A DNA stretch of 64,000 nt from Adineta vaga (lineage: Eukaryota > Animalia > Rotifera), in NCBI GenBank assembly GCA_021613535.1, contig CP075495.1:186001-250000 (forward strand), written 5' to 3'. Shown piece after piece: positions 9,951 through 56,516 of the stretch. Below the pieces are notes generated by a model that worked only from the letters and a program-made list of their open reading frames with translations, had not been told where the DNA came from and made no database searches. Each line of letters opens with the position of its first letter. The stretch's first letter is position 1. Made by a program: the position numbers and the translations under genes.

Positions 9951-9954
9951 ACAG

Positions 9955-10013: not shown

Positions 10014-10028
10014 GGGTGCTGAGATGAA

Positions 10029-10114: not shown

Positions 10115-10147
10115 AAGGTTGTAGATTTGAATATTTGATTGAGAATA

Positions 10148-18971: not shown

Positions 18972-21369
18972 CGATATATCAGTTTAAAAAATCAATCGCC
19001 TTAAGTCAATAAGATGATAACAGCACTTTGCAATTTATCTATAAAAGGTGTTAATAGCTATAAGAAACAAGTAGAAACACTTTGAAAAAAAACACAACAT
19101 GGTTGATTAGATAGATATGAAGTGTTTTTTTAACAGAACAAAATCAGAATATCGGAATCTAATCAGTATCGAATTCTATATTAGTTAAAATCAAAGACAA
19201 AACTGTACTGTACCAGAATTATATGAGTTCGTAATAATACAATATAGTTGTCGAAGATAAGGATGTGTAAGGTTAAACTTTGGAGTTTATTTAAAATTTT
19301 TAGAATTATATTTTTATGACTGTATGAATGAATTATCGTCGCTAAAGGAGAGAGAGGAAGAGCAGACGAGAGCTAATCTCTCATTCATTTAGCTAATTGT
19401 TCAAAAAGAAAAAAACATTCATGAAAAGCAGACGTACATATGTATAAACGTAGTTTAATAGGAATGTATTTATCATATAAAGAGACGTGACATATTTACA
19501 TTTGATAAAAGGGTGTAATTGTGATTGAACGCAGAAGGACGATAACGAGATTAATTCACATCTAACGATATCCTTAATAATATCACTATATGGCAGTCGG
19601 TTAGAGAATTTAGTTGAGTTTGGAATTGATATAAATACAAAAACAATTTCTATATCTATCTATTTTTTCATTTAATTCATAGAGAAGAAATTATAATTGA
19701 TAAATGTATAAGTAATCATTTTAACTACAATAAATAAACTATGTCGTTTGTCTTTAAACTTAGATAGATGTTTTTCTTACTTTGGGGACATGAGGTACAT
19801 TGAAATTCGTATAAAAAGAGAAATACAATTTTGTTTTTCTTCAAACAGTAGACAGATGTTTTGTATTCGCGGGACACGCGTCACATTGAAACTTGTATTC
19901 AGACAAAAACAGAATTTTTCTTCATACAAGATAAATAGATTTTTTGAAGAACGGGACATGCGGGATATTCAATGATCGGTTTTTCATAAGAAGTATACAA
20001 TAGATTTTACTTTTTTTCTGTTACTCAAAATATGAAGCTTTCTTATGATCTGTTCAGGTGTAATAGAGAGAAACTTTGTTTTTCTATTTCATTGATATCG
20101 AGCGGGAAATCCGTGGTGTGGGCTGATTTTATTTATTTACTTTTTCTTTCATAGGTATTAAAAGATTTTACAGAAAAATTGTGGTGACTTAATCAGTTGA
20201 AAAATGGAAAAGTTTTCAAAAACGATCTCTTTTGTATGTTATTTCTCTATCAGTAAAAATAGAAAATAATCTCACAACTATCATCAATATACAAGGTCAC
20301 AAATGTTTAGAAGGAAATGTCTGAGGGTGGGCGTTATGGCAAATAATGACAATACCAAAAAAAAGGTTTATATTGAAATAAATTTCATCATAATATTCTA
20401 ATCAAATATTCATGTTTTTATCTGATGAAAAAAATATACATTCATGAACAGAATGATTTATATTCTCTTTTTTTTCTACTCAAATCTATTAATCTTTATA
20501 TCAATCTTGTACATGTTCTCTTTTTTATCGCTCATTCTGATCTCAACTAAAACTAGTTTCAATCGATGCAGAATTTGATTTCGAATCGAATAGACCTGTT
20601 TTCAACGACAGAAATGTATCGGTAAGAGAAAAATTCTCTCTTGAATTACCTATGATGACGTATAGGTCATGTACACATGTGTGTATAATTGAAAAAAAAA
20701 GATATCGTTCGATGAATATATTCGAAATTAACGAACGAAAAAAGCATCTAGCCATTTGTTTTCTATTTATTGTTTAGATTTTTTAGGTATTATATTGTTT
20801 CATTTATCTTTATTATATGAACATTTATGATTGCGCTGTTTTTCGGAGATACAATCTATCTACAGCGAGGTTTCATAATAGATCACCAGTAAAATATGTG
20901 CTGATTTGTTACAGCTCAATACCTTTCTAAAGTAAAAATAACTGACGAAGAAAAGGTTCTTGGAGATTAAAAAGGATATCTGACTATTGAGTCTATAAAA
21001 CATCACTAAATAGTCTGAGTATGAAAAACAAAAAATGAACAGAATACCATTTTACTTTATCAATAGTCATTTTTTTTCCGAACACAGCGTATCAATGTCC
21101 TACATTTATTAAGATAAAACTAGAGAACGAAAAGGATTTTGAATGAAAGAGATTTCGTAACAATATCATAAGAAAAAATCAACATCGACAATTTTATTAT
21201 AAATAAAAGGGTGTCTAAGTGTGTGAGCAAGAAAGAACTTCTCAGTGAGTAAAAGTGTTAAGCAAGCATAACAAGAAAATTGTATGCTGTTTGCTATATA
21301 AACTACATAGTATTAGTTGTATGTGTATTTGATCACAAATACTCTCTACGTAAGTTATCATATCTGTTA

Positions 21370-23027
21370 GTATTATACAAATCACAAAGAAGACATATAA
21401 ATTAAAAAGGTAGATTCATTAAAACCTCTAACGACATTTTTATATTGTGCAAGCCATGCAAAAATTTGTTCACATATCTCAGTATTAGTAGAATTAGCAA
21501 CTGGATCATTATATGGATTAGTATTTTGACGACACCAAGGATCTATATGATTTCGATAATGTAGTTTATCGCAAAAAATTTTAGTCTTTCTAGTTTTTGT
21601 CGTGCGCGAGTTGTTTGAATAAAATTATTAGAATTTTTGATAAACAGTTTCAAGTGGCAGGCATCATCGTAAATTAAAATTTCGAGAAAATTTTCGATAT
21701 TTTGATACATATAAACGAGAAAGTTATATATTTGCGTTATAGATTCATATCTGAATAATTCGGAAATACTGCAGACAAATCCACAGTTAAAAGCAGCAGC
21801 GACAATTCCAGATGTGCGTTGCAAGATACGTTTATATAGTAACGACTTTAATGTTTTACATTGAAGATGAAATCGACCTCTATTTTTTCTTGTTCTTCTC
21901 CTGAGAAAACGACGAACTCGAGGGATTTGCATGTTCAAATGTTCTTTTTGATCATTGTTATCATCATCGTTCGTTGATAAATGTTCACGACATCTTTTAC
22001 TTCTATATTCAGGTCTAGCTGAACATCCAACTTTAACGTCACCAATAGACCCATCAATACTTGGAATAGATATATTTTTCACAGCACAAACTCTTCTGGT
22101 TGCTTTTTGATGTCCATCCAGTACGATAGTTGCGCTACATGGTCCTTTGCAATATTTATGATCTCTTTTACCCCATTTTCTAGTAAATAAATCTTTAACG
22201 TCCGGTAATATATTCAGAAGTGTTGTATGAAAATCTTGTTGATCTGGAATAGGCATACGGAAATTTTCGCTTGCACCAAAATTGCCGAGACGCCAAAGAA
22301 ACAATGTTTTTTGAAGATGAAAACGATTCATATTATCACCTTCTTTTCCTTCAAATTTATCATTTAAATAATTGAAAGCATTAGCACAATTTGAGAAGCC
22401 ACAATGTTTGAATAAAATATCGCCATCGATCTGTAAAAGAAGACGTTTTTCATATCCATAATTTGAAAAAACAGCGAATATTTCATCATCAGGATGAATC
22501 GTCAACATCTTCTGACCGTCTGGACGAAGATAATAATTATAAAAATATTTATAATTACATTTAATACATTGTTTGAAGAACACTGTTCCTTTCTTCGATC
22601 TCTCACCACAGCAGAAAATCGTGACGTCGTGGTGAGGAATCGGATTTGCCAACTCATTTCTTGCACAATTATTATTCATACAATGAGTGATTAAAGGTAT
22701 AAAACAATTGATGAGTGATGCCGAAAAATTATTAAGTTGATTAGAATAATAATTCTTGATATGTCTCTCGACTTCTTCCATAGATCTTATTACAAAAAAG
22801 TCTTTATATATTGGCATGAGTGATTTCCAATTTTCTAAACGAATTCCAATTTGCTCAGGAGAAAATTTTGTTTCAAAAATACGATTTAATAGGCACGTAA
22901 TATGATAATTACGACGAGGAGTAAATTTATTAATTTTCATGTTTAATTGGTGAAGATTCGTTGCCATTTCAAATGAAGTAAGAGGATATAAAATACTGTT
23001 TATGTCAAATTTCGAGGAAGAAGCCAT
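21370..23027 (-). pseudogene. CxC5/CxC6 KDZ transposase (left copy), frameshift near C-terminus
   Basis: Motifs THCMNNNC, KQCIKC, IVLDGHQKATRRVC, VGCSARP..RCREH and IYDDACHL. After the frameshift, HYRNHIDPWCRQNTNPY and NTEICEQIFAWL. Confidence 0.8.
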
Positions 23028-23819
23028 TTTTCGATGCAACTATTTTTTATTTTAATTCGCAACGTTAAATGTAAAACAATGTCTTATATATAGATTATCA
23101 ATAAAGATTTCAAATATATTTCCAAAAAAGTTAACAAATTCTACGTATTATGATAAAAGCTTAAATTACAATAAACGAGTAAATATGCGAATATATATAA
23201 ATATCGAACCAAAGTCAGTATGTTAATTTCTATCCAACGCAATTTCTGACAGAATAAATATCAATACACTAATAAAGCAGCAAAAGATGATTTGAGTAAA
23301 ACGAATGATTGAATTAATATCAATTGAATTGATAATATAAATTCAAATATTGAGTTTAAATCGACAATTGATCAGTCAATGAAAACAATTGTTTAAGCAA
23401 TACCAAATAATTGACGATATGAGTTGTACTGTTAAGTATACGTACAATATATTTGAATCGAAATACAAAATCCAGGTGTTGTGGATGAGGACGAAACGAT
23501 GTATTGATAATGAGAATAAATTGAGAACAATGAACCGAAAAAGGATTAATCGCCAAGTCAGTCGTGATGAGTTGTTGTACTTTCACATTGATGTTTGCAA
23601 GTTACGAATGCGAAATGTTCAGCTATAATCGAAATTTTGAGATGAAACAGATCAAAACATGTTTTTGTCAAAGTATAAGTATGCTTACTCACTCAGATGT
23701 GTATAATGCACTGGTCACGGCTGAGCACACTAAAGTACTCGAACTCATTCGATTTCATATTTCATATTATTGTTGTTCTACTTTTGGTAATTTTACTCTC
23801 GCTTCTCTTTACATTATCA

Positions 23820-26048
23820 ATGTCTTCAAAAGGAATATCTACACATAAAGTGCGTAGCATAATGCAAAAGGCTGCCTCATATCAAATGGATGTTACTAAA
23901 ATTTTCGATGAAAATATATGCAGCGTTATCAGTAACATTTGTTGCAGCAGTCAGATGCTTCATGAATATTTGATTACAATGTTGTTACCTGCCATTGGTC
24001 ATTTTCTCAATGTCAGTCAAATGCGTAGCAACACCGGTACACCAACAAATATTTCATTTTTTACAACAATTATTGGATATCTTAGTGTAAATAAATCAAG
24101 TGCAACAGATGCTGTTCTGAAAGGATGTCTCCTCATCGAAAAGCATATAGGTGTAAAACTAGAGAAAAGTCGAGGCAATTGTTGTGCAACGGTTGAGTCA
24201 CTTTTAACTGAATTGAAAAATACTTCACCTAAATTGATACAAATATGGGATAAAGCAGTTACTCTGTTGCAATCGTTCAGTTTATACAAATAAGGCGGTG
24301 CTGCTTATGACCGATCAATCATGTGCACTTTATATAACTCATCATCAGTCGTTAAACGTCAAACAAAATCAGGAAATATTGTAGTTGAAAATCCGGTCCT
24401 TAACCCTTTCGAGGCGATTGAATTTTTTTAAAAAAGAGCTAAAATTTATTGTTTTTCATGTATATTTATTCTCTATAAATACACCTGTTAGCGTTTTTGA
24501 GGGTATATGACCGTTTGTTTCTCTTTGTCTTGTTCCCATGAATGTATGAAGAATCCTCGCTTCCATTTAATTGGATAGTTATTGAAGTTCACTATTTTTC
24601 ACACGTATTTTATGCGATAGAAGCGAGACAAAGAAGTGCAATTAATTTGTTTTTCGTTTTATGTTCTTTTCGTATCATTACTTTCGATTCTTTTCTCTTA
24701 TGTGTATTGAAAGAATTGAATTTTTGAGTTGATTTAGATGTTTTCTGGTGAGACGTATTTTTCTAACAAATGCAGTTTACTTCATATGCCACTTGTTTCT
24801 CTGTACATGGATAAAATTCTTTATCTTCAGAATATGTTTTTAAAGATATCATTTCATGATATCCTGCCCTACATATTTTAGATATTCTCTACCTGAATTT
24901 TTTATATGGATATCATCTTCTATAACATCCTGTGTGCGTCACTCTCTATACCCTCAGCAATCGCGAGAAGCGAGTTTAGCAACAGCAAAGAAAATAAAAA
25001 CTTTCTGCTCTGATTGTGAAAATGTTTTTTGTCTTGATTGTTTCAACGAAAAGCATTATAGTATGCAATAGATGATTCGGAAAATAACGAACGTAGAATA
25101 GATAATACATTATCTGTAGCCTTTCCTATAAGAAAAAAAAGGAAAAGAAAGCGTTTTTCTATGACATTTCTTCTTGAAATATAATGAGACACACCGGTGG
25201 GTCTCATCGCCTCGAAAGGGTTAATATTGCTGCAGCTGCACATCCTGCTGACATATTTTCATCCGTCTCCAATGAGACAGATGATGATGGACTTATGGCG
25301 CTATTTCTTTTTGCTGCTACCGAACCCTGCATCCCTTTGTCGGATGAAATTACAAATCTTAATATTGATGAACCAAGTCTTGCTCACTTACTATATATTA
25401 TATATTGTTTTAATTCAGCGGAGCATAATGATATACGGCAAACAACAGATCGTGATGACAAACGTATAATATATTCGTACTCGAATGATGCGCAACAGGT
25501 GCAGTATTTTAATTTGATAATTTTTTCTTTTAACTGGAACAGCTAAATAACGATCGTTCTAAAAGAATTAAAACAATAATAGTATTGTAGGGGAATATGT
25601 GTAGTTAACATTCGAAAAGATAACAAATAACCACCTAATACTTAATAATATATATATAATAATATTTTTTCAATGATTAGCTGCTTCTCATTCTGTTACT
25701 GTACAGGTAATCAACACTACTTCGACGAATACACACATCAGATACGTGCAGCATATGGTATCGATCAAGGTCTATGATCTATCTTGAGAAAGGCAAAAGT
25801 ACAAGTGAGCAGATTAGCTGGAGCGTTACATGCCACCTCTTTAGCTTCAGCTGTTTTTGACCAATTGATTGAACATAGTCCATTACCTAGTTACGTTGAT
25901 ACTACGCCACCAGTATTTGATATGCTTAAACGAGCTGTAAAAGATTTTAAACAAACTCACAAATGGACAGTAGAATCTCAAGATACAGCAAAAGCAGCTG
26001 TATTGTTAATGAACTACTATGTTACCCAAAAACAAATATATACAAATC
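23820..26048 (+). pseudogene. DUF3987/YfjI-like P-loop NTPase gene (left copy), interrupted by a piggyBac MITE and truncated by the Helitron
   Basis: Degenerate Walker A (IIGYLSVNKSSA), TVESLL..L, Walker-B-like IWDK, DRSIMCTLYN, ENPVLNIAAAAHP (restored by removing the MITE) and DDGLMALFLF. Coding ends at a GTAAGT donor at 26049. Confidence 0.55.
24404..25220 (+). mobile_element. Non-autonomous piggyBac element (817 bp, left copy)
   Basis: TTAA TSDs at 24400-24403 and 25221-25224; 15-bp perfect TIR CCCTTTCGAGGCGAT; residual Cys-rich C-terminus TFCSDCENVFCLDCFNEKH. Confidence 0.93.
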
Positions 26049-26898
26049 GTAAGTACTCTTAGATTCTGGCTACGTTACACACAAGTAAGGCTCATCCTCT
26101 GGATTCGCGGGCCCTTTTCTGAAAGAATAACGTAACAATATAAATAAAAAAAATTTTAATAATTTTATATGAAACTTGGTTTTTCGAAAAGATTCAGAGA
26201 GAAAGCAATAATCAGTGTCAGTTTATTTTTGTAATAACAAAACGATTAAAAACAGTACAATTTGCGAAACAAAAATAAAAATAAAAAATACACCTGTTAT
26301 AAGCGTTTGATCGGCAAGGAATTAATTATGGTTATTCCAAGCTTATAATACGTTTTCTGATCGTAATGAACACTGACACATGAGTATCCCAGTATAAGAG
26401 TGAGATTCTATAATACAAAAAACATGAAAAAAAACGATAAGCTCAAATATATGGATTTCATGAAGATTAATTTACAAGTTTAACAAAGAAAACACTTCAG
26501 CATCAGAAACGAGTAAATATAGTTGAAAAAATTGAACGATCAATAGATTAGTTATCTTAAACTATATTTAAGAGTCCATAAATGGTTATGAGATTGCAAT
26601 AAATAAATTTGTACAATTAAAGGTAAATATTTGTTAGCTCAAAAACTTATGAAAATTGAATTATTTTGACATAAAAAAGTATGATAACAATAAGGAAAAA
26701 ATATTGGTTCGTTCTATTGATTCTATATTTTTCTTCCTATTTCACTCAATTTTATATTGTTATATGAAGTTGGAGATGAGAAACATGATTTTGGTTGTAT
26801 ACATTAGTCTAAATATTTTTTTAGATTTTTATATTAAATTTTCGAATATTATATCTTACAAAGATTTGGATTTGCTGTTAGCGACCGAATTAGGTCAA

Positions 26899-28726
26899 TC
26901 AGATACTTTGTATACTATTCTTCAACTTACGTCGATAAACATAGTATAGTGCAATAGAGATTAATCCTAAACATATCCAGCTGATAACTGATGCACTAAG
27001 AGACCACGCATCTTTAGGATGAAATGTTTGGATATCAGGAAGAGTGACTGGTTCGCTCAAACGTTTAATAATGTCATCGATTCTTTGGTCACGCGATTTT
27101 ACATTAAACCACGATGTATTCTTTTTTAGATGTTGATAAACATCAACAATAGGGATATTATTTGTCAGGAGACTATTGTTATAAATAACTGCAAATGATG
27201 GACCGCTCGAGGGTATTGGTTGACCTACTAAAGTAAAACCAGGACATGTAATTGTATACCCTGGAGTCACATTTACAACCGATATAGGCGGCAGTATAAC
27301 TTGTTCATTTATGTTCCGTGTTTGCGGTTTAAGAATAGAGTACTCAAATTTAGGAATTTTCAAACAATGAAGTGGTTCAGGTGACGAAGTCACCCAAAGA
27401 TTACCTCGCAGTTGTCGAATAAAGAATGGTTCGGATGGAGCTGATGTTATTTGACAACTTGACAATGATAGAGTTCCAATGATTTGACCAAGACAAGTTT
27501 TGTCTGTTATCGGTTGTATTGGTGGAGTATCACGGCAAGTTGTCATCAATTGAAGATCACATCCAGATGTTTGAGGATCATGCCATTCCATAGTGATATT
27601 GTCTATGGGATTAATTGCCCAATACTGAGGAATGTGACCAATTTGAATAGTTTTATTTTCATAGAAGAACGGAATTGCCATTAATTTGTAGGTATAAAAT
27701 GGTGAATGTTGTTGTTGTGGAACGGCAAAATAACTTGTAATAACAAGACGGCCAATTTCTTCTGGATTCATAGTGGTGTATCGAGAGCTGGGAACAAAAT
27801 CGACTTGTTGACGAACGAGAAGGTTAGTAGTAATTTGAGCAATTGGAATCTGTCCATACTCGGCATTGAATGTTAGATTTCCTCCTGATATAACATCATA
27901 GATTACACTATGTAGATCATCTGGCGAGAGAAATTCTAAAGTAAGTTTATTATGGAAGATTTTCTCTAACGCTAAGTAAAGAAAGGAACGTCGAATCTGG
28001 ATGTGTAGCTTTTCAACACTATCTCTGAGACTTTCAAGACTTTTTGAATGCATTTGTAAAATCGGAATTATAGCATTGATAGCTTGTTGTGTCGTTTGAA
28101 GTTCCTTTGCCAATTCAATCGGGGTTTCTTGAAATTTTACTAATAGTGCTCCATGTGCACGCATAGTATTAGAGAATTCTGAGAGAGATTTCTCGACGAG
28201 TGTCACTTGTTGCTGAAGATTTACTATTTGCATAGAATTCGCGGTAGATATGGCAAGACTGGTAAGTCCTACACCTATACTAATGATATCAGTAAGAAGA
28301 CGTTTATTTCTTTTCATTGTAATATTACATGACGGAATCTTTGAAGCACTTGATAATGGTAAAAAGTAACAAGTAGCAACAGTCATTGGAAAAATTGCTG
28401 AGTTATGAATAATTTTGTCAGATGGTGTGTATGAACCCACTGTCATGGCCTTCAGCCACGATAACTCATGAGTTATGTGTATATGGATCGGATGCTTTGA
28501 GTCATGTACATGTGATCACAGATAGTATATAAAAGCAGTATCTTCTACTTGTGTGTGTGTGTGTGTTCCATCTCAGCAATAAACTCACTCCCTCATAAGT
28601 AAAGAATAGACCTGATTCAGGATGACCAATTGTGGTATTTTGTCCAAAGATATCATTAAGTTTGCCAAGAATATTGTGTGAGAATAAAATCAAGAGAAGA
28701 AATAATAGTACAATGTTGTATATCAT
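26899..28726 (-). pseudogene. Env/F-like class I fusion glycoprotein no. 1 (left copy), interrupted by a solo LTR
   Basis: Signal peptide MIYNIVLLFLLLILFSHNILG, furin site KRNKR, fusion peptide LLTDIISIGVGLTSLAIS, long heptad repeat, Cys-rich region, TM WSLSASVISWICLGLISIALYYVY and a basic tail. The 515-codon downstream part is intact. Confidence 0.85.
28441..28595 (+). mobile_element. Solo LTR (left copy; small deletion at its 3' end and TSD)
   Basis: Begins TG directly after CCCAC. Contains TATATAAAAG, (TG)n and AATAAA. Mirror of 47049-47217. Confidence 0.75.
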
Positions 28727-29163
28727 GCTTGATAGATTTCCGGAAGTTAAAGACGACACTTCTCAATTAAAAATATTGAAGAATGAGAGTCAAATGCTTT
28801 TTACAAATATCTGAAACAAATGAACAAATTATTATTAAAAAGGTCATATTATCGATTGTTTTTTTTTCAAGTGAAGATAAATTATATATGAACTAATTAC
28901 AAGATTACAAAAAAATCAGTTAACATAAAACAACCACTCTAAATCAAAATGATTGAAAAATTTTTAATAGTTTAGTAGTTGTCCTTGAAAAATCGTATGG
29001 ATTTGTTTGATTATTAGATAACTATTCGTCGTTGATCTTGTCAAAACTTTTATTAATTTTGATAAAATAAATGGTGTTCAATTAATTGCGTCATTGGAAA
29101 TGCCGAAAGAGTTTCTTTTGTAGTATTGAATATGCAATGGCTTCAAGCATATTTCATGCCAAG

Positions 29164-32100
29164 TCATACAAAATATTGAGTATAACATTTTTTTGTTTGT
29201 TCAAAAAGTACAGCTAATCTGTTAAGCTCAGATACTTGTCCTTTAGATGGCTTTACTTGTAAAGCAGTGATGCTGAAGTCTTGTAAAATTACGAGATCCG
29301 AAAGCTGTTGTACTCTGGAAAGTGGTACATAAGCAGATGCGACCTCTACCATTCCAGGTGGCATATTTAAATCAATAATTATCTTCCGTAGTGTTTGACC
29401 TTGACTCTTATGAGTAGTGATAGAATAGGCTGGTATCAATGGCAAAGCTTTTCTCTTCACAGATATGGTAGCTTTAACTTTTTTATGTTTGAATATTTTC
29501 ATAACTGCTGCTTTGTTCGCGTACAGCTTCTCCAAACTGACATCAAACGTCTTTTCGACCACTGGAATAGGGACAAGAAGTGCGTCAAGTGAATCAAACT
29601 TTTTGATTTTTGATTTTGATATTTCTACTATTGTGTATTGAGCATTACGAATAAAGACAGTATCATTTGTGAAAACGTCTTCGTTAGATCCTGTAGTAGG
29701 TTCTGCTGTATGATCATAAACTAATCTACGAAAAATACCTTGTGTCCCATTCGACAGACCAAGTTCACAAGCTATATTTTCTTGCAATAGCACAGGCATA
29801 CCTGGCGCAAGAGGTAAGTAACCAGGTAAATGTTCTGTTTTATTATCCGGTAAACTTAAAAGACGTCTCGCCAAATCAGGAAGGTCGATATTTCTCTTAG
29901 CTTTTATTGTATCTGTAGCTATCACAACAGTTGGAACTCGACCCATTTCATATGCTTTATTGATTACAGCTCGATTGTTCAGTTCTGTTCTAAGTTCATT
30001 ACGGTAAACAAGAATTGGAGCCTAAGATACTACAAAAGAAGAAAGAAAACTAACTGCATTGAATAATATGATATTCTTTGTAAAGAGCACTACAGTAAGT
30101 TCTGACAAATGAAAGAAAAAACTCTACTTTCAAAGTTATTCATTTTTTTTATAATCATATCTGTATGCTGTAGTTTGTATGAAAGGACTAGTTGTATTTG
30201 TAACATACCTCGTTCCATGGTGGATCATTGAGAGAGATATTAAGTCCTATGCCAATTACACGTGTTCGAAGTAGTTGCCAATCTGCATTTGTTCCTTCAC
30301 CATTACGAACTCTATCCAACAGAGCTCGATAAGCTATATCTTTTGTTCTCATCTGTTGCTCAAGCATAACAACACAGTTTATTTGTAAGACAAGTGCTCG
30401 AGCACTTTTTTGTTGAATATCGTTTTCAATCGGCAAGTTCGTGTTCCCTTTTCCATCGTTGTCTGACGTAGTGGAAAAATTATAATAAAGTGGTTTGTCA
30501 AATACAGGTGAGTATTGAATATAATCTCCGAAAAAAATTATGTTTATACCGCCCATCGTAGACATGGGATCACAATGCTTAGCTGTCGCAACAAGTTTAT
30601 TCAAACGAGCCAATAAGCTAAGACCAACCATTGACATTTCATCAAGAATGATATATTCTACAAAACGCCATGTATTTTCAAGTGTCATCTGACCTGGACG
30701 ATTCATAGTTTTTTATTTCCTTTTCCGATTGCGTCCTTCACCGAGAAAGGAATGAATTGTCATGCCTTCAATCTCTGCTGCGGCAACTGATGTTGGCGCA
30801 AGTTTTCTCAATTTATGCGCACGATTTGTTTCTGTAAAATAGGCAGTAACAGCACGGATCAATTGAGACTTTCCTGTACCACCACAGCCGGGTACACACA
30901 TAATTAACTGATCTTGTTTGTCAACTAGAAAAAAATTAGTATGGTTATAATTTTTTCCGATTTATTACATCATCGTACCTCCGTTTAAACTATCTAAGCC
31001 ATCCAGATGACCAGTAATAATCATAAATGCAGCTTTTTGATTCTTGTTCAGCGTGAATTGTCTTGCCATGTTCTCTCGTGTTATTTCGTTTGGTACAATA
31101 ATTTTTGTGACTGACATAATGTGTCCTGAACTCGAGATGATCTTATTATTATCTAGATTTGATGGTAAATTATCTTCGATAACTTTAGCCAGTTCATTTT
31201 CGACATTATCATTATTCTCCACAATGTTATTTTGTGGTTGTTCACCTATACAAGCATTTCTTATTCGATCTTTATCGTCTTTAATTTTTCGTTGCCATCT
31301 ATTATTTAATTGAAGTAGTTCATGAGTTGCTGGCACTTAAATGTTCATGATCAGAAACAATATTCCCCTGCAATTTGGACGTATATGTAAGGCGATTTGT
31401 CGCTCCTGTATGCGAATCTATAAATGACAGTTATTAATGGTTATCTTCAAAAATGAATACTCTTACTTCGAATATTTGCAAATCTGTTAGCTTGATCCAC
31501 TGCTTTCACTATCTTTTCAAAATATATTTGTTCTACTTTATTCGCATTGTGATTGAAAGTAGGCATGTCAGCGATATCCAACGCTTCTAATACATCAAGT
31601 ACTTCAGTATTTTCATCCTCACTATCACTGTTAACATGATGAGAATAGTACTCGCCACCACCAGTATCAGTTTGTGCAGCTTCAATTACCTGCTGCAAAT
31701 GCTCATCACGATCACTTTTACATTCTTGAAGCAACTGTATATTATTGATGATTTTCCATGATGTTGGAAGGATTTTAGTTTGATGCATATGAAATGCTTC
31801 TTCCCATGTCTGGTTAACATTAGATACGTCTTCAAATGTGCGCCAGGGAAGAAAAAGAGGCAATATGGCTCGGCAATAACGTTCTTTTGTATCTTCTCGG
31901 TCTTTACGAGGTATTGGAGGACCAAGTAAGACTGGAACGACTGGTATCATACGCTTTATATTTATATGTGATGTTGCTTGCGGATGTTGAGCTTGAAACA
32001 TCTCTCTTTCAGAAAATGGTCGGCCACGGTGTAAAGTTTTTGAATGATCATTTGTCGATTCTGATTGAGTTTCCAAATGCTTTCGATCTCTTGCATCAAT

Positions 32101-45200: not shown

Positions 45201-46474
45201 CTTGCCGACTGAAAACGATATTCAACAAAAAAGTGCTCGAGCACTTGTCTTACAAATAAACTGTGTTGTTATGCTTGAGCAACAGATGAGAACAAAAGAT
45301 ATAGCTTATCGAGCTCTGTTGGATAGAGTTCGTAATGGTGAAGGAACAAATGCAGATTGGCAACTACTTCGAACACGTGTAATTGCCATAGGACTTAATA
45401 TATCTCTTAATGATCCACCATGGAACGAGGTATGTTACGAATACAATTAGTCCATTCATACAAATTACAGCATACAGATATAATTATAAAACAAATGAGT
45501 AACTTTGAAAGTAGAGTTTTTTCTTTCATTCGTATGAACTTACTGTAGTGCTCTTTGCAAAGAATATCATATTATTCAATGCAGTTAATTTCCTTTCTTC
45601 TCTTGTACTATTTTAGGCTCCAATTCTTGTTTACCGTAATGAACTTAGAACAGAACTGAACAATCGAGCTGTAATCAATAAAGCATATGAAATGGGTCGA
45701 GTTCCAACTGTTGTGATAGCTACAGATACAATAAAAGCTAAGAGACATATCGACCTTCCTGATTTGGCGAGACGTCTTTTAAGTTTACCGGATAATAAAA
45801 CAGAACATTTACCTGGTTACTTACCTCTTGTGTCAGGTATGCCTGTGCTATTGCAAGAAAATATAGCTTGTGAACTTGGTCTGTCAAATGGGACACAAGG
45901 TATTTTTCGTAGATTAGTTTATGATCATACAGCAGAACCTACTACAGGATCTAAAGAAGATGTTTTCACAAATGATACTGTCTTTATTCGTAATGCTCAA
46001 TACACAATAGTAGAAATATCAAAATCAAAAATCAAAAAGTTTGATTCACTTGACGCACTTCTTGTCCCTATTCCAGTGGTCGAAAAGACGTTTGATGTCA
46101 GTTTGGAGAAGCTGTACGCGAACAAAGCAGCAGTTATGAAAATATTCAAACATAAAAAAGTTAAAGCTACCATATCTGTGAAGAGAAAAGCTTTGCCATT
46201 GATACCAGCCTATTCTATCACTACTCATAAGAGTCAAGGTCAAACACTACCGAAGATAATGATTGATTTAAATATGCTACCTGGAATGGTAGAGGTCGCA
46301 TCTGCTTATGTACCACTTTCCAGAGTACAACAGCTTTCGGATCTCGTAATTTTACAAGACTTCAGCATCACTGCTTTACAAGTAAAGCCATCTAAAGGAC
46401 AAATATCTGAGCTTAACAGATTAGCTGTACTTTTTGAACAAACAAAAAAATGTTATGCTCAATATTTTGTATGA
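39217..46474 (+). pseudogene. Helitron RepHel polyprotein, right copy
   Basis: Same motifs as the left copy. Extra lesions include a premature TAA at ~44476 and YVTK changed to YVTE. Confidence 0.92.
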
Positions 46475-46911
46475 CTTGACGTGAAATATGTTTGAAGTCA
46501 TTGTATATTCAATACTACAAAAGAAACTCTTTCGGCATTTCCAATGACGCAATTAATTGAACACCATTTATTTTATCAAAATGAATAAAAGTTTTGACAA
46601 GATCAACGACGAATAGTTATCTAATAATCAAACAAATCCATACGATTTTTCAAGGACAACTACTAAACTATTAAAAATTTTTCAATCATTTTGATTTAGA
46701 GTGGTTGTTTTATGTTAACTGATTTTTTTGTAATCTTGTAATTAGTTCATATATAATTTATCTTCACTTGAAAAAAAAACAATCGATAATATGACCTTTT
46801 TAATAATAATTTGTTCATTTGTTTCAGATATTTGTAAAAAGCATTTGACTCTCATTCTTCAATATTTTTAATTGAGAAGTGTCGTCTTTAACTTCCGGAA
46901 ATCTATCAAGC

Positions 46912-48758
46912 ATGATATACAACATTGTACTATTATTTCTTCTCTTGATTTTATTCTCACACAATATTCTTGGCAAACTTAATGATATCTTTGGACAAAA
47001 TACCACAATTGGTCATCCTGAATCAGGTCTATTCTTTACTTATGTGGGTGTGAGGGGAGTGAGTTTATTGCATGATGAGAATGAGATGGAACACACACAC
47101 ACACACAAGTAGAAGATACTGCTTTTTATATACTATCTGTGATCACATGTACATGACTCAAAGCATCCGATCCATATACACATAACTCATGAGTTATCGT
47201 GGCTGAAGGCCATGACAGTGGGTTCATACACACCATCTGACAAAATTATTCATAACTCAGCCATTTTTCCAATGACTGTTGCTACTTGTTACTTTTTACC
47301 ATTATCAAGTGCTTCAAAGATTCCGTCATGTAATATTACAATGAAAAGAAATAAACGTCTTCTTACTGATATCATTAGTATAGGTGTAGGACTTACCAGT
47401 CTTGCCATATCTACGGCGAATTCTATGCAAATAATAAATCTTCAGCAACAAGTGACACTAGTCGAGAAATCTCTCTCAGAATTCTCTAATACTATGCGTG
47501 CACATGGAGCACTACTAGTAAAATTTCAAGAAATCCAGATTGAATTGGCAAAGGAACTTCAAACGACACAACAAGCTATCAATGCTATAATTCCGATTTT
47601 ACAAATGCATTCAAGAAGTCTTGAAAGTCTCAGAGATAGTGTTGAAAAGCTACACATCCAGATTCGACGTTCCTTTCTTTACTTAGCGTTAGAGAAAATC
47701 TTCCATAATAAACTTACTTTAGAATTTCTCTCGCCAGATGATCTACATAGTGTAATCTATGATGTTATATCAGGAGGAAATCTAACATTCAATGCCGAGT
47801 ATGGACAGATTCCAATTGCTCAAATTACTACTAACCTTCTCGTTCGTCAACAAGTCGATTTTGTTCCCAGCTCTCGATACACCACTATGAATCCAGAAGA
47901 AATTGGCCGTCTTGTTATTACAAGTTATTTTGCCGTTCCACAACAACAACATTCACCATTTTATACCTACAAATTAATGGCAATTCCGTTCTTCTATGAA
48001 AATAAAACTATTCAAATTGGTCACATTCCTCAGTATTGGGCAATTAATCCCATAGACAATATCACTATGGAATGGCATGATCCTCAAACATCTGGATGTG
48101 ATCTTCAATTGATGACAACTTGCCGTGATACTCCACCAATACAACCGATAACAGACAAAACTTGTCTTGGTCAAATCATTGGAACTCTATCATTGTCAAG
48201 TTGTCAAATAACATCAGCTCCATCCGAACCATTCTTTATTCGACAACTGCGAGGTAATCTTTGGGTGACTTCGTCACCTGAACCACTTCATTGTTTGAAA
48301 ATTCCTAAATTTGAGTACTCTATTCTTAAACCGCAAACACGGAACATAAATGAACAAGTTATACTGCCGCCTATATCGGTTGTAAATGTGACTCCAGGGT
48401 ATACAATTACATGTCCTGGTTTTACTTTAGTAGGTCAACCAATACCCTCGAGCGGTCCATCATTTGCAGTTATTTATAACAATAGTCTCCTGACAAATAA
48501 TATCCCTATTGTTGATGTTTATAACATCTGAAAAGAATACATCGTGGTTTAATGTAAAATCGCGTGAACCAAAGAATCGATGACATTATTAAACGTTTGA
48601 TCGAACCAGTCACTCTTCCTGATATCCAAACATTTCATCCTAAAGATGTGTGGTCTCTTAGTGCATTAGTTATCAGCTGGATATGTTTAGGATTAATCTC
48701 TATTGCACTATACTATGTTTATCGACGTAGGTTGAAGAATAATATACAAAGTATCTGA
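46912..48758 (+). pseudogene. Env/F-like fusion glycoprotein no. 1 (right copy), solo-LTR insertion and 3' frameshift
   Basis: Removing the LTR plus one TSD copy restores ..GLFFTYVGSYTPSDK... There is a frameshift at ~48520 relative to the left copy. Confidence 0.85.
47049..47217 (-). mobile_element. Solo LTR, 169 bp, 5-bp TSD GTGGG
   Basis: TG...CA termini; GTGGG at 47044-47048 and 47218-47222. TATA and AATAAA are on the strand antisense to env. Confidence 0.85.
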
Positions 48759-49603
48759 TTGACTTAATTCGGTCACTAATAGCGAATCTTTGTAAGATAT
48801 AATATTCGAAAATTTAATATAAAAATCTAAAAAAAACTATTTAGACTAATGTATACAACCAAAATCATGTTTCTCATCTCCAACTTCATATAACAATATA
48901 AAATTGAGTGAAATAGGAAGAAAAATATAGAATCAATAGAACAAACCAATATTTTTTCCTTATTGTTAGCATACTTTTTTATGTCAAAATAATTCAATTT
49001 TCATAAGTTTTTGAGCTAACAAATATTTACCTTTAATTGTACAAATTTATTTATTGCAATCTCATAACCATTTATGGACTCTTAAATATAGTTTAAGATA
49101 ACTAATCTATTGATCGTTCAATTTTTTCAACTATATTTACTCGTTTCTGATGCTGAAGTGTTTTCTTTGTTAAACTTGTAAATTAATCTTCATGAAATCC
49201 ATATATTTGAGCTTATCGTTTTTTTTCATGTTTTTTGTATTATAGAATCTCACTCTTATACTGGGATACTCATGTGTCAGTGTTCATTACGATCAGAAAA
49301 CGTATTATAAGCTTGGAATAACCATAATTAATTCCTTGCCGATCAAACGCTTATAACAAGTGTGTTTTTTATTTTTATTTTTGTTTCGCAAATTGTACTG
49401 TTTTTAATCGTTCTGTTATTACAAAAATAAACTGACACTGATTATTGCTTTATCTTTGAATCTTTTGGAAAAACCAAGTGTCATATAAAATTATTAAAAT
49501 TTTTTTATTCATATTGTCACGTTATTCTTTCAGAAAAGGGCCCGCGAATCCAGAGGATGAGCCTTACTTGTGTGTAACGTAGCCAGAATCTAAGAGTACT
49601 TAC

Positions 49604-51819
49604 GATTTGTATATATTTGTTTTTGGGTAACATAGTAGTTCATTAACAATACAGCTGCTTTTGCTGTATCTTGAGATTCTACTATCCATTTGTGAGTTTG
49701 TTTAAAATCTTTTACAGCTCGTTTAAGCATATCAAATACTGGTGGCGTAGTATCAACGTAACTAGGTAATGGACTATGTTCAATCAATTGGTCAAAAACA
49801 GCTGAAGCTAAAGAGGTGGCATGTAACGCTCCAGCTAATCTGCTCACTTGTACTTTTGCCTTTCTCAAGATAGATCATAGACCTTGATCGATACCATATG
49901 CTGCACGTATCTGATGTGTGTATTCGTCGAAGTAGTGTTGATTACCTGTACAGTAACAGAATGAGAAGCAGCTAATCATTGAAAAAATATTATTATATAT
50001 ATATTATTAAGTATTAGGTGGTTATTTGTTATCTTTTCGAATGTTAACTACACATATTCCCCTACAATACTATTATTGTTTTAATTCTTTTAGAACGATC
50101 GTTATTTAGCTGTTCCAGTTAAAAGAAAAAATTATCAAATTAAAATACTGCACCTGTTGCGCATCATTCGAGTACGAATATATTATACGTTTGTCATCAC
50201 GATCTGTTGTTTGCCGTATATCATTATGCTCCGCTGAATTAAAACAATATATAATATATAGTAAGTGAGCAAGACTTGGTTCATCAATATTAAGATTTGT
50301 AATTTCATCCGACAAAGGGATGCAGGGTTCGGTAGCAGCAAAAAGAAATAGCGCCATAAGTCCATCATCATCTGTCTCATTGGAGACGGATGAAAATATG
50401 TCAGCAGGATGTGCAGCTGCAGCAATATTAACCCTTTCGAGGCGATGAGACCCACCGGTGTGTCTCATTATATTTCAAGAAGAAATGTCATAGAAAAACG
50501 CTTTCTTTTCCTTTTTTTTCTTATAGGAAAGGCTACAGATAATGTATTATCTATTCTACGTTCGTTATTTTCCGAATCATCTATTGCATACTATAATGCT
50601 TTTCGTTGAAACAATCAAGACAAAAAACATTTTCACAATCAGAGCAGAAAGTTTTTATTTTCTTTGCTGTTGCTAAACTCGCTTCTCGCGATTGCTGAGG
50701 GTATAGAGAGTGACGCACACAGGATGTTATAGAAGATGATATCCATATAAAAAAATTCAGGTAGAGAATATCTAAAATATGTAGGGCAGGATATCATGAA
50801 ATGATATCTTTAAAAACATATTCTGAAGATAAAGAATTTTATCCATGTACAGAGAAACAAGTGGCATATGAAGTAAACTGCATTTGTTAGAAAAATACGT
50901 CTCACCAGAAAACATCTAAATCAACTCAAAATTCAATTCTTTCAATACACAAGAGAAAAGAATCGAAAGTAATGATACGAAAAGAACATAAAACGAAAAA
51001 CAAATTAATTGCACTTCTTTGTCTCGCTTCTATCGCATAAAATACGTGTGAAAATAGTGAACTTCAATAACTATCAATTAAATGGAAGCGAGGATTCTTC
51101 ATACATTCATGGGAACAAGACAAAGAGAAACAAACGGTCATATACCCTCAAAAACGCTAACAGGTGTATTTATAGAGAATAAATATACATGAAAACAATA
51201 AATTTTAGCTCTTTTTTAAAAAATTCAATCGCCTCGAAAGGGTTAAGGACCGGATTTTCAACTACAATATTTCCTGATTTTTGTTTGACGTTTAACGACT
51301 GATGATGAGTTATATAAAGTGCACATGATTGATCGGTCATAAGCAGCACCGCCTTATTTGTATAAACTGAACGATTGCAACAGAGTAACTGCTTTATCCC
51401 ATATTTGTATCAATTTAGGTGATGTATTTTTTAATTCAGTCAAAAGTGATTCAACCGTTGCACAACAATTGCCTCGACTTTTCTCTAGTTTTACACCTAT
51501 ATGCTTTTCGATGAGGAGACATCCTTTCAGAACAGCATCTGTTGCACTTGATTTATTTACACTGATATCCAATAATTGTTGTAAAAATGAAATATTTGTT
51601 GGTGTACCGGTGTTGCTACGCATTTGACTGACATTGAAAATGATGGCAGGTAACAACATTGTAATCAAATATTCATGAAGCATCTGACTGCTGCAACAAA
51701 TGTTACTGATAACGCTGCATATATTTTCATCGAAAATTTTAGTAACATCCATTTGATATGAGGCAGCCTTTTTGCATTATGCTACGCACTTTATGTGTAG
51801 ATATTCCTTTTGAAGACAT
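49604..51819 (-). pseudogene. DUF3987-like NTPase gene (right copy)
   Basis: Mirror of 23820-26048 with extra small indels. Confidence 0.55.
50432..51242 (-). mobile_element. Non-autonomous piggyBac (right copy)
   Basis: TTAA-CCCTTTCGAGGCGAT ... ATCGCCTCGAAAGGG-TTAA. Confidence 0.93.
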
Positions 51820-52617
51820 TGATAATGTAAAGAGAAGCGAGAGTAAAATTACCAAAAGTAGAACAACAATAATATGAAATATGAAATCGAATGAGTTCGA
51901 GTACTTTAGTGTGCTCAGCCGTGACCAGTGCATTATACACATCTGAGTGAGTAAGCATACTTATACTTTGACAAAAACATGTTTTGATCTGTTTCATCTC
52001 AAAATTTCGATTATAGCTGAACATTTCGCATTCGTAACTTGCAAACATCAATGTAAAAGTACAACAACTCATCACGACTGACTTGGCGATTAATCCTTTT
52101 TCGGTTCATTGTTCTCAATTTATTCTCATTATCAATACATCGTTTCGTCCTCATCCACAACACCTGGATTTTGTATTTCGATTCAAATATATTGTACGTA
52201 TACTTAACAGTACAACTCATATCGTCAATTATTTGGTATTGCTTAAACAATTGTTTTCATTGACTGATCAATTGTCGATTTAAACTCAATATTTGAATTT
52301 ATATTATCAATTCAATTGATATTAATTCAATCATTCGTTTTACTCAAATCATCTTTTGCTGCTTTATTAGTGTATTGATATTTATTCTGTCAGAAATTGC
52401 GTTGGATAGAAATTAACATGTTCGTACTGACTTTGGTTCGATATTTATATATATTCGCATATTTACTCGTTTATTGTAATTTAAGCTTTTATCATAATAC
52501 GTAGAATTTGTTAACTTTTTTGGAAATATATTTGAAATCTTTATTGATAATCTATATATAAGACATTGTTTTACATTTAACGTTGCGAATTAAAATAAAA
52601 AATAGTTGCATCGAAAA

Positions 52618-54270
52618 ATGGCTTCTTCCTCGAAATTTGACATAAACAGTATTTTATATCCTCTTACTTCATTTGAAATGGCAACGAATCTTCACCAATT
52701 AAACATGAAAATTAATAAATTTACTCCTCGTCGTAATTATCATATTACGTGCCTATTAAATCGTATTTTTGAAACAAAATTTTCTCCTGAGCAAATTGGA
52801 ATTCGTTTAGAAAATTGGAAATCACTCATGCCAATATATAAAGACTTTTTTGTAATAAGATCTATGGAAGAAGTCGAGAGACATATCAAGAATTATTATT
52901 CTAATCAACTTAATAATTTTTCGGCATCACTCATCAATTGTTTTATACCTTTAATCACTCATTGTATGAATAATAATTGTGCAAGAAATGAGTTGGCAAA
53001 TCCGATTCCTCACCACGACGTCACGATTTTCTGCTGTGGTGAGAGATCGAAGAAAGGAACAGTGTTCTTCAAACAACGTATTAAATATAATTACAAATAT
53101 TTTTATCATTATTGTCTTCGTTATCAGACGGCCAGAAGATGTTGACGATTCGTCCTAATGATGAAATTTTCGTTGTTTTTTCAAATTATGGATATGAAAA
53201 ACGTCTTCTTTTACAGATCGATGGCGATATTTTATTCAAACATTGTGGCTTCTCAAATTGTGCTAATGCTTTCAATTATTTAAATGATAAATTTGAAGGA
53301 AAAGAAGGTGATAATATGAATCGTTTTCATCTTCAAAAAACATTGTTTCTTTGGCGTCTCGGCAATTTTGGTGCAAGCGAAAATTTCCGTATGCCTATTC
53401 CAGATCAACAAGATTTTCATACAACACTTCTGAATATATTACCGGACGTTAAAGATTTATTTACTAGAAAATGGGGTAAAAGAGATCATAAATATTGCAA
53501 AGGACCATGTAGCGCAACTATCGTACTGGATGGACATCAAAAAGCAACCAGAAGAGTTTGTGCTGTGAAAAATATATCTATTCCAAGTATTGATGGGTCT
53601 ATTGGTGACGTTAAAGTTGGATGTTCAGCTAGACCTGAATATAGAAGTAAAAGATGTCGTGAACATTTATCAACGAACGATGATGATAACAATGATCAAA
53701 AAGAACATTTGAACATGCAAATCCCTCGAGTTCGTCGTTTTCTCAGGAGAAGAACAAGAAAAAATAGAGGTCGATTTCATCTTCAATGTAAAACATTAAA
53801 GTCGTTACTATATAAACGTATCTTGCAACGCACATCTGGAATTGTCGCTGCTGCTTTTAACTGTGGATTTGTCTGCAGTATTTCCGAATTATTCAGATAT
53901 GAATCTATAACGCAAATATATAACTTTCTCGTTTATATGTATCAAAATATCGAAAATTTTCTCGAAATTTTAATTTACGATGATGCCTGCCACTTGAAAC
54001 TGTTTATCAAAAATTCTAATAATTTTATTCAAACAACTCGCGCACGACAAAAACTAGAAAGACTAAAATTTTTTGCGATAAACTACATTATCGAAATCAT
54101 ATAGATCCTTGGTGTCGTCAAAATACTAATCCATATAATGATCCAGTTGCTAATTCTACTAATACTGAGATATGTGAACAAATTTTTGCATGGCTTGCAC
54201 AATATAAAAATGTCGTTAGAGGTTTTAATGAATCTACCTTCTTAATCTACATCTGTCTTCTTTGTGATTT
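52618..54270 (+). pseudogene. CxC5/CxC6 KDZ transposase (right copy)
   Basis: Mirror of 21370-23027, with an extra frameshift at ~53120 and loss of CxxC (KQCIKC changed to KQRIKY). Confidence 0.8.
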
Positions 54271-56516
54271 GTATAATAGTAACAGATATGATAACTTACG
54301 TAAAGAGTATTTGTCATCAAATACACATACAACTAATACTATGTAGTTTATATAGCAAACAGCATACAAATTTCTTGTTATGCTTGCTTAACACTTTTAC
54401 TCACTGATAAGTTCTTTCTTGTTCATACACTTAGACATTCTTTTATTCATAATTAAATTGTTGATGTTGATTTTTTTATGATATTGTAGCGAAATCTCTT
54501 TCATTCAAAATCCTTTTCGTTCTCTAGTTTTATCTTAATAAATGTGGGACATTGATACGCTGTGTTCGGAAAAAAATGACTATTGATAAAATGGTATTCT
54601 GTTCATTTTTTGTTTTTCATACTCAGACTATTTAGTGATGTTTCCTAGACTCAATAGTCAGATATCCTTTTTAATCTCCAAGAACCTTTTCTTCGTCAGT
54701 TATTTTTACTTTAGAAAGGTATTGAGCTGTAACAAATCAGCACATATTTTACTGGTGATCTATTATGAAACCTCGCTGTAGATAGATTGTATCTCCGAAA
54801 AACAGCGCAATCATAAATGTTGATATAATAAAGATAAATGAAACAATATAATACCTAAAAAATCTAAACAATAAATAGAAAACAAATGGCTAGATGCTTT
54901 TTTCGTTCGTTAATTTCGAATATATTCATCGAACGATATCTTTTTTTTTCAATTATACACACATGTGTACATGACCTATACGTCATCATAGGTAATTCAA
55001 GAGAGAATTTCTCTCTTACAAATATATTTCTGTCGTTGAAAACAGGTCTATTCGATTCGAAATCAAATTCTGCATCGATTGAAACTAGTTTTAGTTGAGA
55101 TCAGAATGAGCGATAAAAAAGAGAACATGTACAAGATTGATATAAAGATTAATAGATTTGAGTAGAAAAAAAAGAGAATATAAATCATTCTGTTCATGAA
55201 TGTATATTTTTTTCATCAGATAAAAACATGAATATTTGATTAGAATATTATGATGAAGTATATTTCAATATAAACTGTTTTTTTGGTATTGTCATTATTT
55301 GCCATACAGCACACCCTCATACACTTCCTTCTAAATATTTGTGACTTTTTATATTGATGATAGTTGTGAAAGCATTTTCTATTTTTACATATAGAGAAAT
55401 AACATACAAAAGAGATCGTTTTTGAAAACTTTTCCATTTTTCAACTGATTAAGTCACCACAATTTTTCTGTAAAATCTTTTAATACCTATGAAAGAAAAA
55501 GTAAATAAATAAAATCAGCCCACACCACGGATTTCCCGCTCGATATCAATGAAATAGAAAAACAAAGTTTCTCTCTATTACACCTGAACAGATCATAAGA
55601 AAGCTTCATATTTTGAGTAACAGAAAAAAAAGTAAAAACTATTGTATGCTTCTTATGAAAAAACCGATCATTGAATATCCCGTATGTCCCGTTCTTCAAA
55701 AAATCTATTTATCATATATGAAGAAAAAATTCTGTTTTTGTCTGAATACAAGTTTCAATGTGACGCATGTCCCGCGAATACAAAAATCTGTCTACTGTTT
55801 GAAGAAAAACAAAATTCTATTTCTCTTTTCATACGAATTCCAATGTACCTCCTGTCCCCAAAGTAAAAAAACATCTATCTAAGTTTAAAGACAAACGACA
55901 TAGTTTATTTATGGTAGTTAAAATGATTACTTATACATTTATCAATTATAATATCTTCTCTATGAGTTAAATGAAAAAATAGATAGATATAGAAATTGTT
56001 TTTGTATTTATATCAATTCCAAACTCAACTAAATTCTCTAACCGACTGCCATATAGTGATATTATTAAGCATATCTTTCGATGTTAATTAATCTCGTTAT
56101 CGTCCTTCTGCGTTCAATCACAATTACACCCTTTTATCAAATGTAAATATGTCACGTCTCTTTATATGATAAATACATTCCTATTAAACTACGTTTATAC
56201 ATATGTACGTCTGCTTTTCATGAATGTTTTTTTCTTTTTGAACAATTAGCTAAATGAATGAGAGATTAGCTCTCGTCTGCTCTTCCTCTCTCTCCTTTAG
56301 CGACGATAATTCATTCATACAGTCATAAAAATATAATTCTAAAAATTTTAAATAAACTCCAAAGTTTAACCTTACACATCCTTATCTTCGACAACTATAT
56401 TGTATTATTACGAACTCATATAATTCTGGTACAGTACAGTTTTGTCTTTGATTTTAACTAATATAGAATTCGATACTGATTAGATTCCGATATTCTGATT
56501 TTTGTTCTGTTAAAAA

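Follow-up and report, generated by a model that had tools for sequence, protein, structure and literature searches.

The 64-kb window examined here, by which we mean the whole stretch of Adineta vaga DNA that was analysed, contains a 37-kb palindrome whose mirror axis is occupied by a 2.8-kb Tc4/Tc5-type element with 287-bp terminal inverted repeats (TIRs). The palindrome is likely real, and we lean, with some reserve, toward the view that it is an inverted duplication of 17.3 kb per arm on one chromosome, formed when the 287-bp TIRs paired after a break and the flank was copied. More tentatively, we suggest a genuine heritable TIR-seeded giant palindrome that would be one case of a general route from breaks to inverted duplications through long-TIR elements in bdelloid regions rich in transposons, with later exchange between the arms.

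The palindrome and the transposon at its axis

Self-BLAST of the window returned one long inverted match, 19109-36706 against 56529-38929 (98.3% over 17,642 columns), and the second-longest repeat inside the window was 186 bp. In the alignment the arms end cleanly at 19127 and 56516, which gives a left arm of 19127..36706 and a right arm of 38929..56516, each including its TIR. The initial annotation had described a 37-kb palindrome centred on a Tc5-like transposon, with TIRs of about 287 bp running unbroken into about 17.3 kb of mirrored flank; the inverted match and the Pfam domains in the spacer bear out the first part, and the alignment, with TIRs of 287 and 288 bp, the second.

The left TIR (36420..36706, plus strand, 287 bp) is directly preceded by TAA at 36417-36419, and the right TIR (38929..39216, minus strand, 288 bp) is directly followed by TTA at 39217-39219, so the inversion of the target trinucleotide claimed earlier can be read directly. 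One substitution and one difference in the length of a T-run separate the two TIRs. Contig branch points provided an independent check of the outer TIR edge: an empty-site contig meets the arm at 39217, and other copies of the family diverge at 39220-39221. The empty target site, C-TTA-G, agrees with the CTNAG target of Tc4/Tc5 transposons. A direct TNA duplication is absent around the element copy, which has TAA...TTA, inverted; this reflects rearrangement, and the copy at the axis is not an intact insertion. A search of the window found the TIR sequence only at the palindrome centre, while several further TIR-end variants of the same family are present in public-run contigs. Taken alone, the TIR did not fold unusually (z = -0.98), Rfam returned 0 matches at E 0.1, and of the 62 loci picked out in metagenomes by a 17-base TIR motif, only one had a 26-base BLAST match and none belonged to the family.

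The element interior is a single-copy spacer (36707..38928, plus strand), recovered as one contig of 2,280-2,282 bp in the public runs X15, X1, X2, and X3 and the lowest-depth long piece of the palindrome. It carries a Tc5-like transposase gene (37306..38882, plus strand) with a Tc5-type HTH domain (PF03221, 35.5 bits against a cut-off of 22.2), a Tc5 C-terminal domain (PF04236, 43.5 bits against 27.4), a probable intron near 38040-38090, and an in-frame TGA at 38358-38360. Because the spacer contig matches the window with 0 differences in X15 and X1, we take the TGA to be real. The element is a dead transposon. No Pfam match to the DDE_1/DDD catalytic domain was found on the split pieces of the transposase; these pieces are 35% and 52% identical to P0001, which itself has DDE_1, and the 52% stretch covers 260 aa.

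The element inserted within the OTU domain of a bdelloid Helitron, and each arm starts mid-OTU. The 3' part of this OTU-Helitron, comprising the C-terminal half of OTU, the Rep region, and the Pif1 helicase, lies at 29164..36416 (minus strand) in the left arm and at 39220..46474 (plus strand) in the right arm, as the initial annotation had proposed in placing the same Helitron part on both sides. Its further statement that the 5' flank was gone holds for the window, where the N-terminal half of OTU is absent from the whole 64 kb, but not for the genome, where public-run contigs indicate about 3-4 uninterrupted copies elsewhere and a total of about 5. The arms also contain a putative envelope-like ORF (26899..28515, minus strand; labelled by eye, with no Pfam match), whose mirror copy starts at 47143 and ends earlier, and a CxC5/KDZ-type transposase ORF (21543..23039, minus strand), whose mirror copy at 52606-54104 is split.

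Divergence, depth, and junctions

Over 17,544 aligned columns the arms differ by 221 substitutions (1.26%), and 37 indel events also separate them; these counts leave out one listed gap at the inner edge. This divergence is over-dispersed 5.7-fold, compared with at most 2.2 in 2,000 shuffles, and forms a mosaic of 0-4%. The arms being both mosaic and 1.26% divergent, the suggestion of a fresh, sequence-level snapshot of the event does not hold. Between-arm dN/dS rose from 0.51 (raw) to 0.70 with transition correction, and an excess of synonymous differences (39/112, p = 0.047 after the same correction) suggests that some tracts come from separately evolved copies. One tract free of substitutions holds a cluster of homopolymer indels (8 within 1.74 kb, against 29 in 15.8 kb elsewhere); the tract was picked post hoc for its zero substitutions, which inflates a Fisher test, and the rates alone are used here. 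Among the listed sites with reads differing from the right arm, the left arm carries the read-consensus letter at 31 of 40, and 9 of the 40 listed letters are common to both arms against the consensus, which hints at common descent of the arms. Letters found in the right arm only occur at 0.66-1.29x spacer depth in 7 run-site rows. The right arm represents a single-copy haplotype of its own and is probably the derived one of the two.

Contig depth in the public runs was expressed relative to the spacer, a rough measure from which X13 and X14 (small shares) were left out. The window-type TIR end leads to the arm only, through an unbranched contig without mismatch (39170-39246). The TIR-to-arm junction stood at 2.30, 1.91, 2.44, and 2.50x the spacer in X15, X1, X2, and X3 (four of four runs), and the inner TIR end at 2.28x in X15, the sole run that has it as a separate contig. 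For the same TIR family, two junctions with a single flank, one read directly and the other obtained by bin arithmetic, were at 0.67-1.36x in three runs. Arm depth was 3.0-5.3x, and the outer arm contigs, at 3.05-4.39x in X15, X1, and X2, exceed the 1-2 expected from two alleles, which counts for a real structure. These depths point to 3-5 arm copies and, for each spacer, two junctions between TIR and arm. Arm depth at half the expected value, named in the initial annotation as the sign of a fold-back of two alleles, was not what we found, with the TIR-arm junction at about 2x and the outer arm at least 3x the spacer. A two-allele join was thus rejected: hemizygous or homozygous alleles predict a junction-to-spacer ratio of 1 (measured 1.9-2.5) and arm depth of at most 2 (measured 3.0-5.3). 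A fold-back read or amplification chimera was likewise rejected, since public contigs contain arm-specific letters and include the spacer as a genuine single-copy contig.

On neither side does a contig run from the spacer through the TIR into the arm, and the longest (X6) ends at 39195. In four of four runs, exactly 27 letters of the empty-site contig are loose. With 31-letter words, 27 loose letters mark the cut point of a branch right after TTA, and a Helitron-5'-TTA-non-G junction therefore probably survives elsewhere in the genome, most simply joined to a variant TIR; which TIR variant, if any, adjoins the Helitron 5' flank is beyond what depth arithmetic can assign. Such a junction would leave one TIR end at the target site unpaired under every model.

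A possible, though doubtful, explanation for these observations is an assembly join, in which a conventional insertion (running from the Helitron 5' flank through a variant TIR, the spacer, and a TIR to the arm) and a separate TIR-arm copy were merged within the 287-bp TIR. The second copy could then be, just as tentatively, an allele with its interior deleted or an ectopic break-induced replication product started from the TIR of another family member. Such a join equally predicts two TIR-to-arm junctions per spacer, accounts for the branch after the Helitron-5' TTA, and can draw on the TIR-end variants known in contigs; the absence of a bridging contig allows two dispersed copies to have been joined, the arm divergence of 1.26% is allele-like, near the 1.7% allelic level reported for Adineta vaga, and bdelloid draft palindromes were scaffolding artefacts. 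Its plain versions, however, predict a junction-to-spacer depth of 1 where 1.9-2.5 was observed, and the join calls for one more TIR-arm copy standing alone, as well as a single element whose TIR ends are not alike. There is no N in the window, its two TIRs differ at two places and are therefore not one collapsed repeat, and the homopolymer indel cluster is slight evidence for a long-read consensus; such a consensus would bridge 2.8 kb. The public-run contigs mostly favour a real structure.

Pairing of the TIRs as the probable origin of the arms

Seeding by the TIRs, also the initial proposal, is the best reading of the centre, where the mirror takes in the TIRs together with the same target trinucleotide, inverted; the missing bridge from spacer to arm is one place where that proposal falls short. 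The fold-back hallmark is present, with a spaced repeat pair at the axis and a duplication that begins at the repeat. Of the roughly five OTU-Helitron copies, one received the element at C-TTA-G. On the Helitron-5' side, resection from a break or an uncapped end may then have gone past the element, allowing the TIRs to anneal as single-stranded DNA over a 2.2-kb loop and the unpaired 3' flap to be trimmed. Synthesis from the annealed TIR would have copied the TIR tip, TTA, and then the arm, and such copying explains the inverted trinucleotide without requiring a transposase. At 17.3 kb out, a hairpin or dicentric product would have broken, or synthesis would have switched template, and the end so formed would have healed by joining a truncated transposon at 56517. 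The 0-4% mosaic could have arisen later through mutation and patchy gene conversion between copies. A sister-chromatid crossover between opposite TIRs would give the same end sequence as fold-back.

The right outer flank (56517..59859, minus strand) is a DNA transposon, presumably Sola2-like, that has a terminus at 59859 but lacks the other; it is cut at the arm boundary, about 200 bp beyond its last ORF. The lack of a second end counts for the proposed duplication. The left outer junction (19109..19126) has imperfect similarity to the right-flank junction, a microhomology that falls short of significance (of 600 random flank pairs, 5.7% do equally well). Neither outer junction was found in the contig tables shown for the public runs.

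The outer junction also bears on an improbable alternative, a replication-based template switch in which a stalled fork or break-induced-replication bubble passed from TIR to TIR with no hairpin-capped intermediate, copied back along the arm, and switched a second time at 56517. It would yield the same centre and fits the imperfect similarity at the outer junction, and PMC10164571, in the part available, cites fusion of spaced repeats through replication. The outer microhomology, however, is no better than chance allows, and no sequence feature distinguishes such a switch from fold-back.

The initial annotation had also offered alternative-end or sister-chromatid transposition; a reaction of this kind, on sister chromatids or a hybrid element and catalysed by the Tc5-like transposase, we regard as very improbable. 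A DNA transposon does sit at the axis, a transposase cut could account for a junction at the exact target site, and the sections available of a study on Ac/Ds describe inverted duplications made in this way (PMC3239180). Such reactions, however, bring an end of the element to a new target, with a footprint left behind; here the same site is inverted at both ends, and new target duplication, footprint, and element end at the outer junctions are all absent. Re-insertion into the same CTTAG would be required, and a stop now interrupts the resident transposase gene, though it may be younger than the event.

Bdelloid palindromes and known systems

Bdelloid palindromes were first read as evidence of ameiotic evolution and later dismissed as artefacts. 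If true, the palindrome described here is a counter-example to the view that all of them are assembly artefacts; if verified, it would give bdelloid palindromes a local origin from transposon ends and offer a substrate on which gene conversion between arms could be tested. Should it prove a misjoin, a 287-bp TIR common to a small family suffices to fake a 37-kb palindrome. Giant palindromes from spaced inverted repeats are established in engineered yeast, and natural germline cases with a base-resolved intact seed are useful. Our literature search, with most subscription papers outside its reach, found no natural TIR-centred palindrome.

As far as the accessible parts of the sources go, allelic divergence in Adineta vaga is 1.7%, and all 20 palindromes of the 2013 draft collapsed in a long-read assembly (PMC8494291, 10.1101/2020.06.16.155473, PMC7953838). 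The present palindrome resembles those in its inverted arms, its allele-like divergence, and its bdelloid assembly; unlike them, alleles joined by scaffolding, it has by depth 3-5 arm copies and two TIR-arm junctions per spacer.

The Tc4/Tc5 group (Tc1/mariner-pogo) has, in the portion available of 10.1101/2023.11.06.565293, a CTNAG target, TNA adjoining the TIR, and Tc5 HTH and C-terminal zinc domains. Our Tc4/Tc5-type element shares the target site, TNA, and both Tc5 domains, and differs in that its trinucleotide is inverted rather than directly repeated. The Tc4 consensus sequences in that portion come from nematodes, arthropods, and tardigrades only, whereas our element comes from a bdelloid. 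A rearrangement with transposon ends, and long TIRs linked to breaks, recall what the available text reports for Ac/Ds (PMC3239180) and Galileo (PMC2775673); the new target duplication, footprint, or outer element end of Ac/Ds sister-chromatid and hybrid-element products (PMC3239180) is not present here.

The route itself, pairing of end repeats in break repair, is by our analysis already known from yeast experiments. In the part of PMC10164571 available, 8 of the 12 clones obtained from an Alu pair spaced by 1.5 kb had a terminal deletion together with inverted duplications of about 24 kb and were healed by translocation. The Adineta palindrome is like these products in its repeat pair, its kilobase-scale spacer at the axis, an apparent loss of one flank, an inverted duplication of tens of kilobases, and apparent healing onto other repeated or subtelomeric DNA. 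It differs from the engineered repeats and selected clones of that system (PMC10164571) in that the two TIRs of one natural transposon make up the pair and enough time has passed for the product to become a mosaic, and in that the palindrome is known from its sequence, with the dicentric step a presumed one.

Palindrome geometry and the central transposon

Self-comparison of the window returned a single long inverted match (98.3% over 17,642 columns), with arm limits by alignment at 19127-36706 and 38929-56516. The arms differ by 221 substitutions in 17,544 columns, 146 of them transitions, and by 37 indel events. Divergence is uneven (between 0 and 21 substitutions in each 500 bp, with a variance-to-mean ratio of 5.7), and the longest substitution-free tract reaches 1,744 bp versus at most 1,243 bp in 2,000 shuffles. 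The segment 24224-25968 and its mirror hold eight small indels, mostly homopolymer, and zero substitutions; these indels are possibly unpolished consensus errors of the assembly. Reads and the right arm showed 426 differences; of the 40 best supported, 31 match the left arm and nine are unlike both arms.

The element at the centre (36420-39216) has as its TIRs the innermost 287-288 bp of each arm, is flanked by TAA and TTA, and encloses a 2,222-bp spacer (36707-38928) with transposase coding for Tc5 HTH and C-terminal domains. The initial annotation, which had described a 37-kb palindrome centred on a Tc5-like transposon, was accurate on both palindrome and element. The spacer transposase aligned to P0001, a protein relative, at 35% and 52% identity, and its frame is interrupted by a TGA at 38358; P0001 was the sole longer relative found. 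The insertion target, C-TTA-G, was read from 27 loose letters of the empty-site contig, an uninterrupted Helitron copy, and CTNAG is the target described for Tc4 in the available text of a tardigrade preprint (10.1101/2023.11.06.565293). On domains and target, the element is predicted to belong to Tc4/Tc5, from which this copy differs in lacking a direct target duplication and an open frame. The host of this CTNAG-targeting element is a bdelloid; the same portion of the preprint lists Tc4 in ecdysozoans only and suggests an ecdysozoan origin (10.1101/2023.11.06.565293). In the contigs, the TIR family (39166-39221) comprises at least three tip variants and roughly 7-9 ends in total, with one transposase-bearing interior seen. 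Additional TIR copies in the public run X15 appear to join only from ~38976 outward, a joining point that suggests non-autonomous derivatives with shorter TIRs.

The host Helitron and arm content

Next to each TIR lies a frame encoding the C-terminal half of an OTU domain; the N-terminal half is absent within the 64-kb window. Every named match among the 27 relatives of this frame is bdelloid (Adineta, Rotaria, Didymodactylos), several with Helitron domains. Beyond the OTU half, both arms contain the Rep and Pif1 regions of the Helitron, together with an envelope-like frame (labelled by eye) and a CxC5/KDZ frame. Two envelope-like frames, at 16697-18983 and 26899-28515 (both minus strand), show by eye a signal peptide and a basic site preceding a hydrophobic stretch; neither has a Pfam match, and they share no BLAST similarity at E 1e-3. 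Three diverged KDZ-type transposase loci (2372-3410, 21543-23039 and 60828-63236) are 35-42% identical over short stretches.

Short TGTGGG/TGAGGG-like units, similar to the rotifer telomere repeat and too few for significance, occur in two settings. One is an arm indel close to where the Helitron meets the envelope-like frame (47040-47060, mirror near 28590); the other is a 37-bp tandem repeat at 10013-10114. The stretch 9937-10636, upstream of a transposase-like locus (8151-9721), contains tandem repeats with an 8-bp unit, along with a direct repeat of 186 bp (91%). A short repeat is 76% similar between the left flank (11155-11278) and the outer part of the arm (20045-20170).

Contig depth and copy count

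Five runs from four studies, of 21 listed, were examined, all as contigs, and one may be the assembly's own source. Contigs of X15, X1, X2 and X6 were compared over 36720-56700 and those of X15, X1, X2 and X3 over 38880-39340; contig depth is a rough guide, with some values obtained by arithmetic on depth bins. The spacer is one contig, with depths of 48.2 (X15), 13.5 (X1), 32.9 (X2) and 87.4 (X3). Relative to the spacer in the same run, the window-type passage from TIR tip to arm (39170-39246), unbranched and with zero mismatch, stood at 2.30, 1.91, 2.44 and 2.50 times, respectively, and two other single TIR-flank junctions at 0.67-1.36 times in the three runs where this was computable. The empty-site contig joins the arm at 39217 in all four runs at 3.5-4.4 times spacer depth, and its loose letters extend the OTU frame as N-I-G-S-F-N-E-A-L, as in OTU relatives (by eye). 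Depth was 4.5-5.3 times in the inner arm, 3.0-4.4 times in the outer arm and 0.66-1.29 times for letters private to the right arm (seven run-site rows, chosen for both letters being visible).

The depths are most simply explained by a single spacer with two TIR-arm junctions, alongside three to four Helitron copies with an empty site and an outer arm present about three times. These numbers agree with a one-chromosome palindrome accompanied by an empty-site copy. They do not agree with a simple join of two alleles, which is rejected on depth (two TIR-arm junctions per spacer and roughly three copies of the outer arm). Over 39217-56516, depth falls outward stepwise from ~5 to ~4 to ~3 times spacer, a pattern that suggests either Helitron read-through or partial, nested copies of the segment.

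The palindrome is probably real. Against it, no contig in the runs examined bridges spacer to arm, and the outer junctions were absent among the loose-end rows listed. Mean arm divergence is close to the 1.7% heterozygosity reported for A. vaga, for which the consulted portions of two sources also report that 20 of 20 draft palindromes collapsed with long reads (PMC8494291, 10.1101/2020.06.16.155473). The empty-site contig begins 27 letters ahead of TTA in all four runs, which with 31-letter words is the cut expected from a branch right after TTA; probably, therefore, non-arm sequence also follows the Helitron 5' flank. Because the window-type TIR is unbranched, it is excluded as this second continuation, for which two variant TIR tips, with onward flanks partly visible, are candidates. 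Three ends at the insertion site would then share one spacer, and one end would therefore be orphaned under any model: either a 5' flank piece, if the palindrome is real, or a second TIR-arm copy, if the assembly made the join, an explanation we regard as possible but rather unlikely.

Origin of the palindrome

The mirror takes in the TIR tips and target trinucleotide, so the switch would lie inside the TIR, by homology, rather than at a transposase cut. The interpretation proposed in the initial annotation is partly supported: TIR seeding is favoured in this form, and the alternative-transposition branch is disfavoured. The accessible parts of PMC3239180 and PMC2775673 describe two marks of alternative transposition, a footprint and an element end inserted at a target that is new; neither was found at the palindrome, and we consider this origin very improbable. 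A replication template switch also seems improbable. We lean towards fold-back or an equivalent sister crossover.

In a yeast model, as described in the available part of PMC10164571, resection exposes spaced repeats, which anneal with each other; once the flap has been trimmed, synthesis closes a hairpin, and the dicentric later breaks and its end is healed on other repeated DNA. An Alu pair spaced 1.5 kb gave duplications of ~24 kb in 8 of 12 clones there (PMC10164571). This model appears to fit the palindrome closely: the TIRs would act as the spaced repeats, annealing in resected DNA before flap trimming and hairpin closure by synthesis, and the dicentric product would break and be healed onto other repeated DNA. 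On its right, the palindrome is flanked by a transposon that has one terminus only and is cut off at the arm, and this flank looks as a healed end would; we infer which flank is original.

In the literature searched, no naturally occurring palindrome was listed with a single TIR element at its centre, and PMC3846280, PMC7953838 and PMC6829131 provided, in the parts available, general background only. Inverted-repeat-seeded duplication is already a known class of mechanism; the palindrome would work alike, and its centre, a spaced repeat pair at the axis with the duplication starting at the repeat, matches the class.
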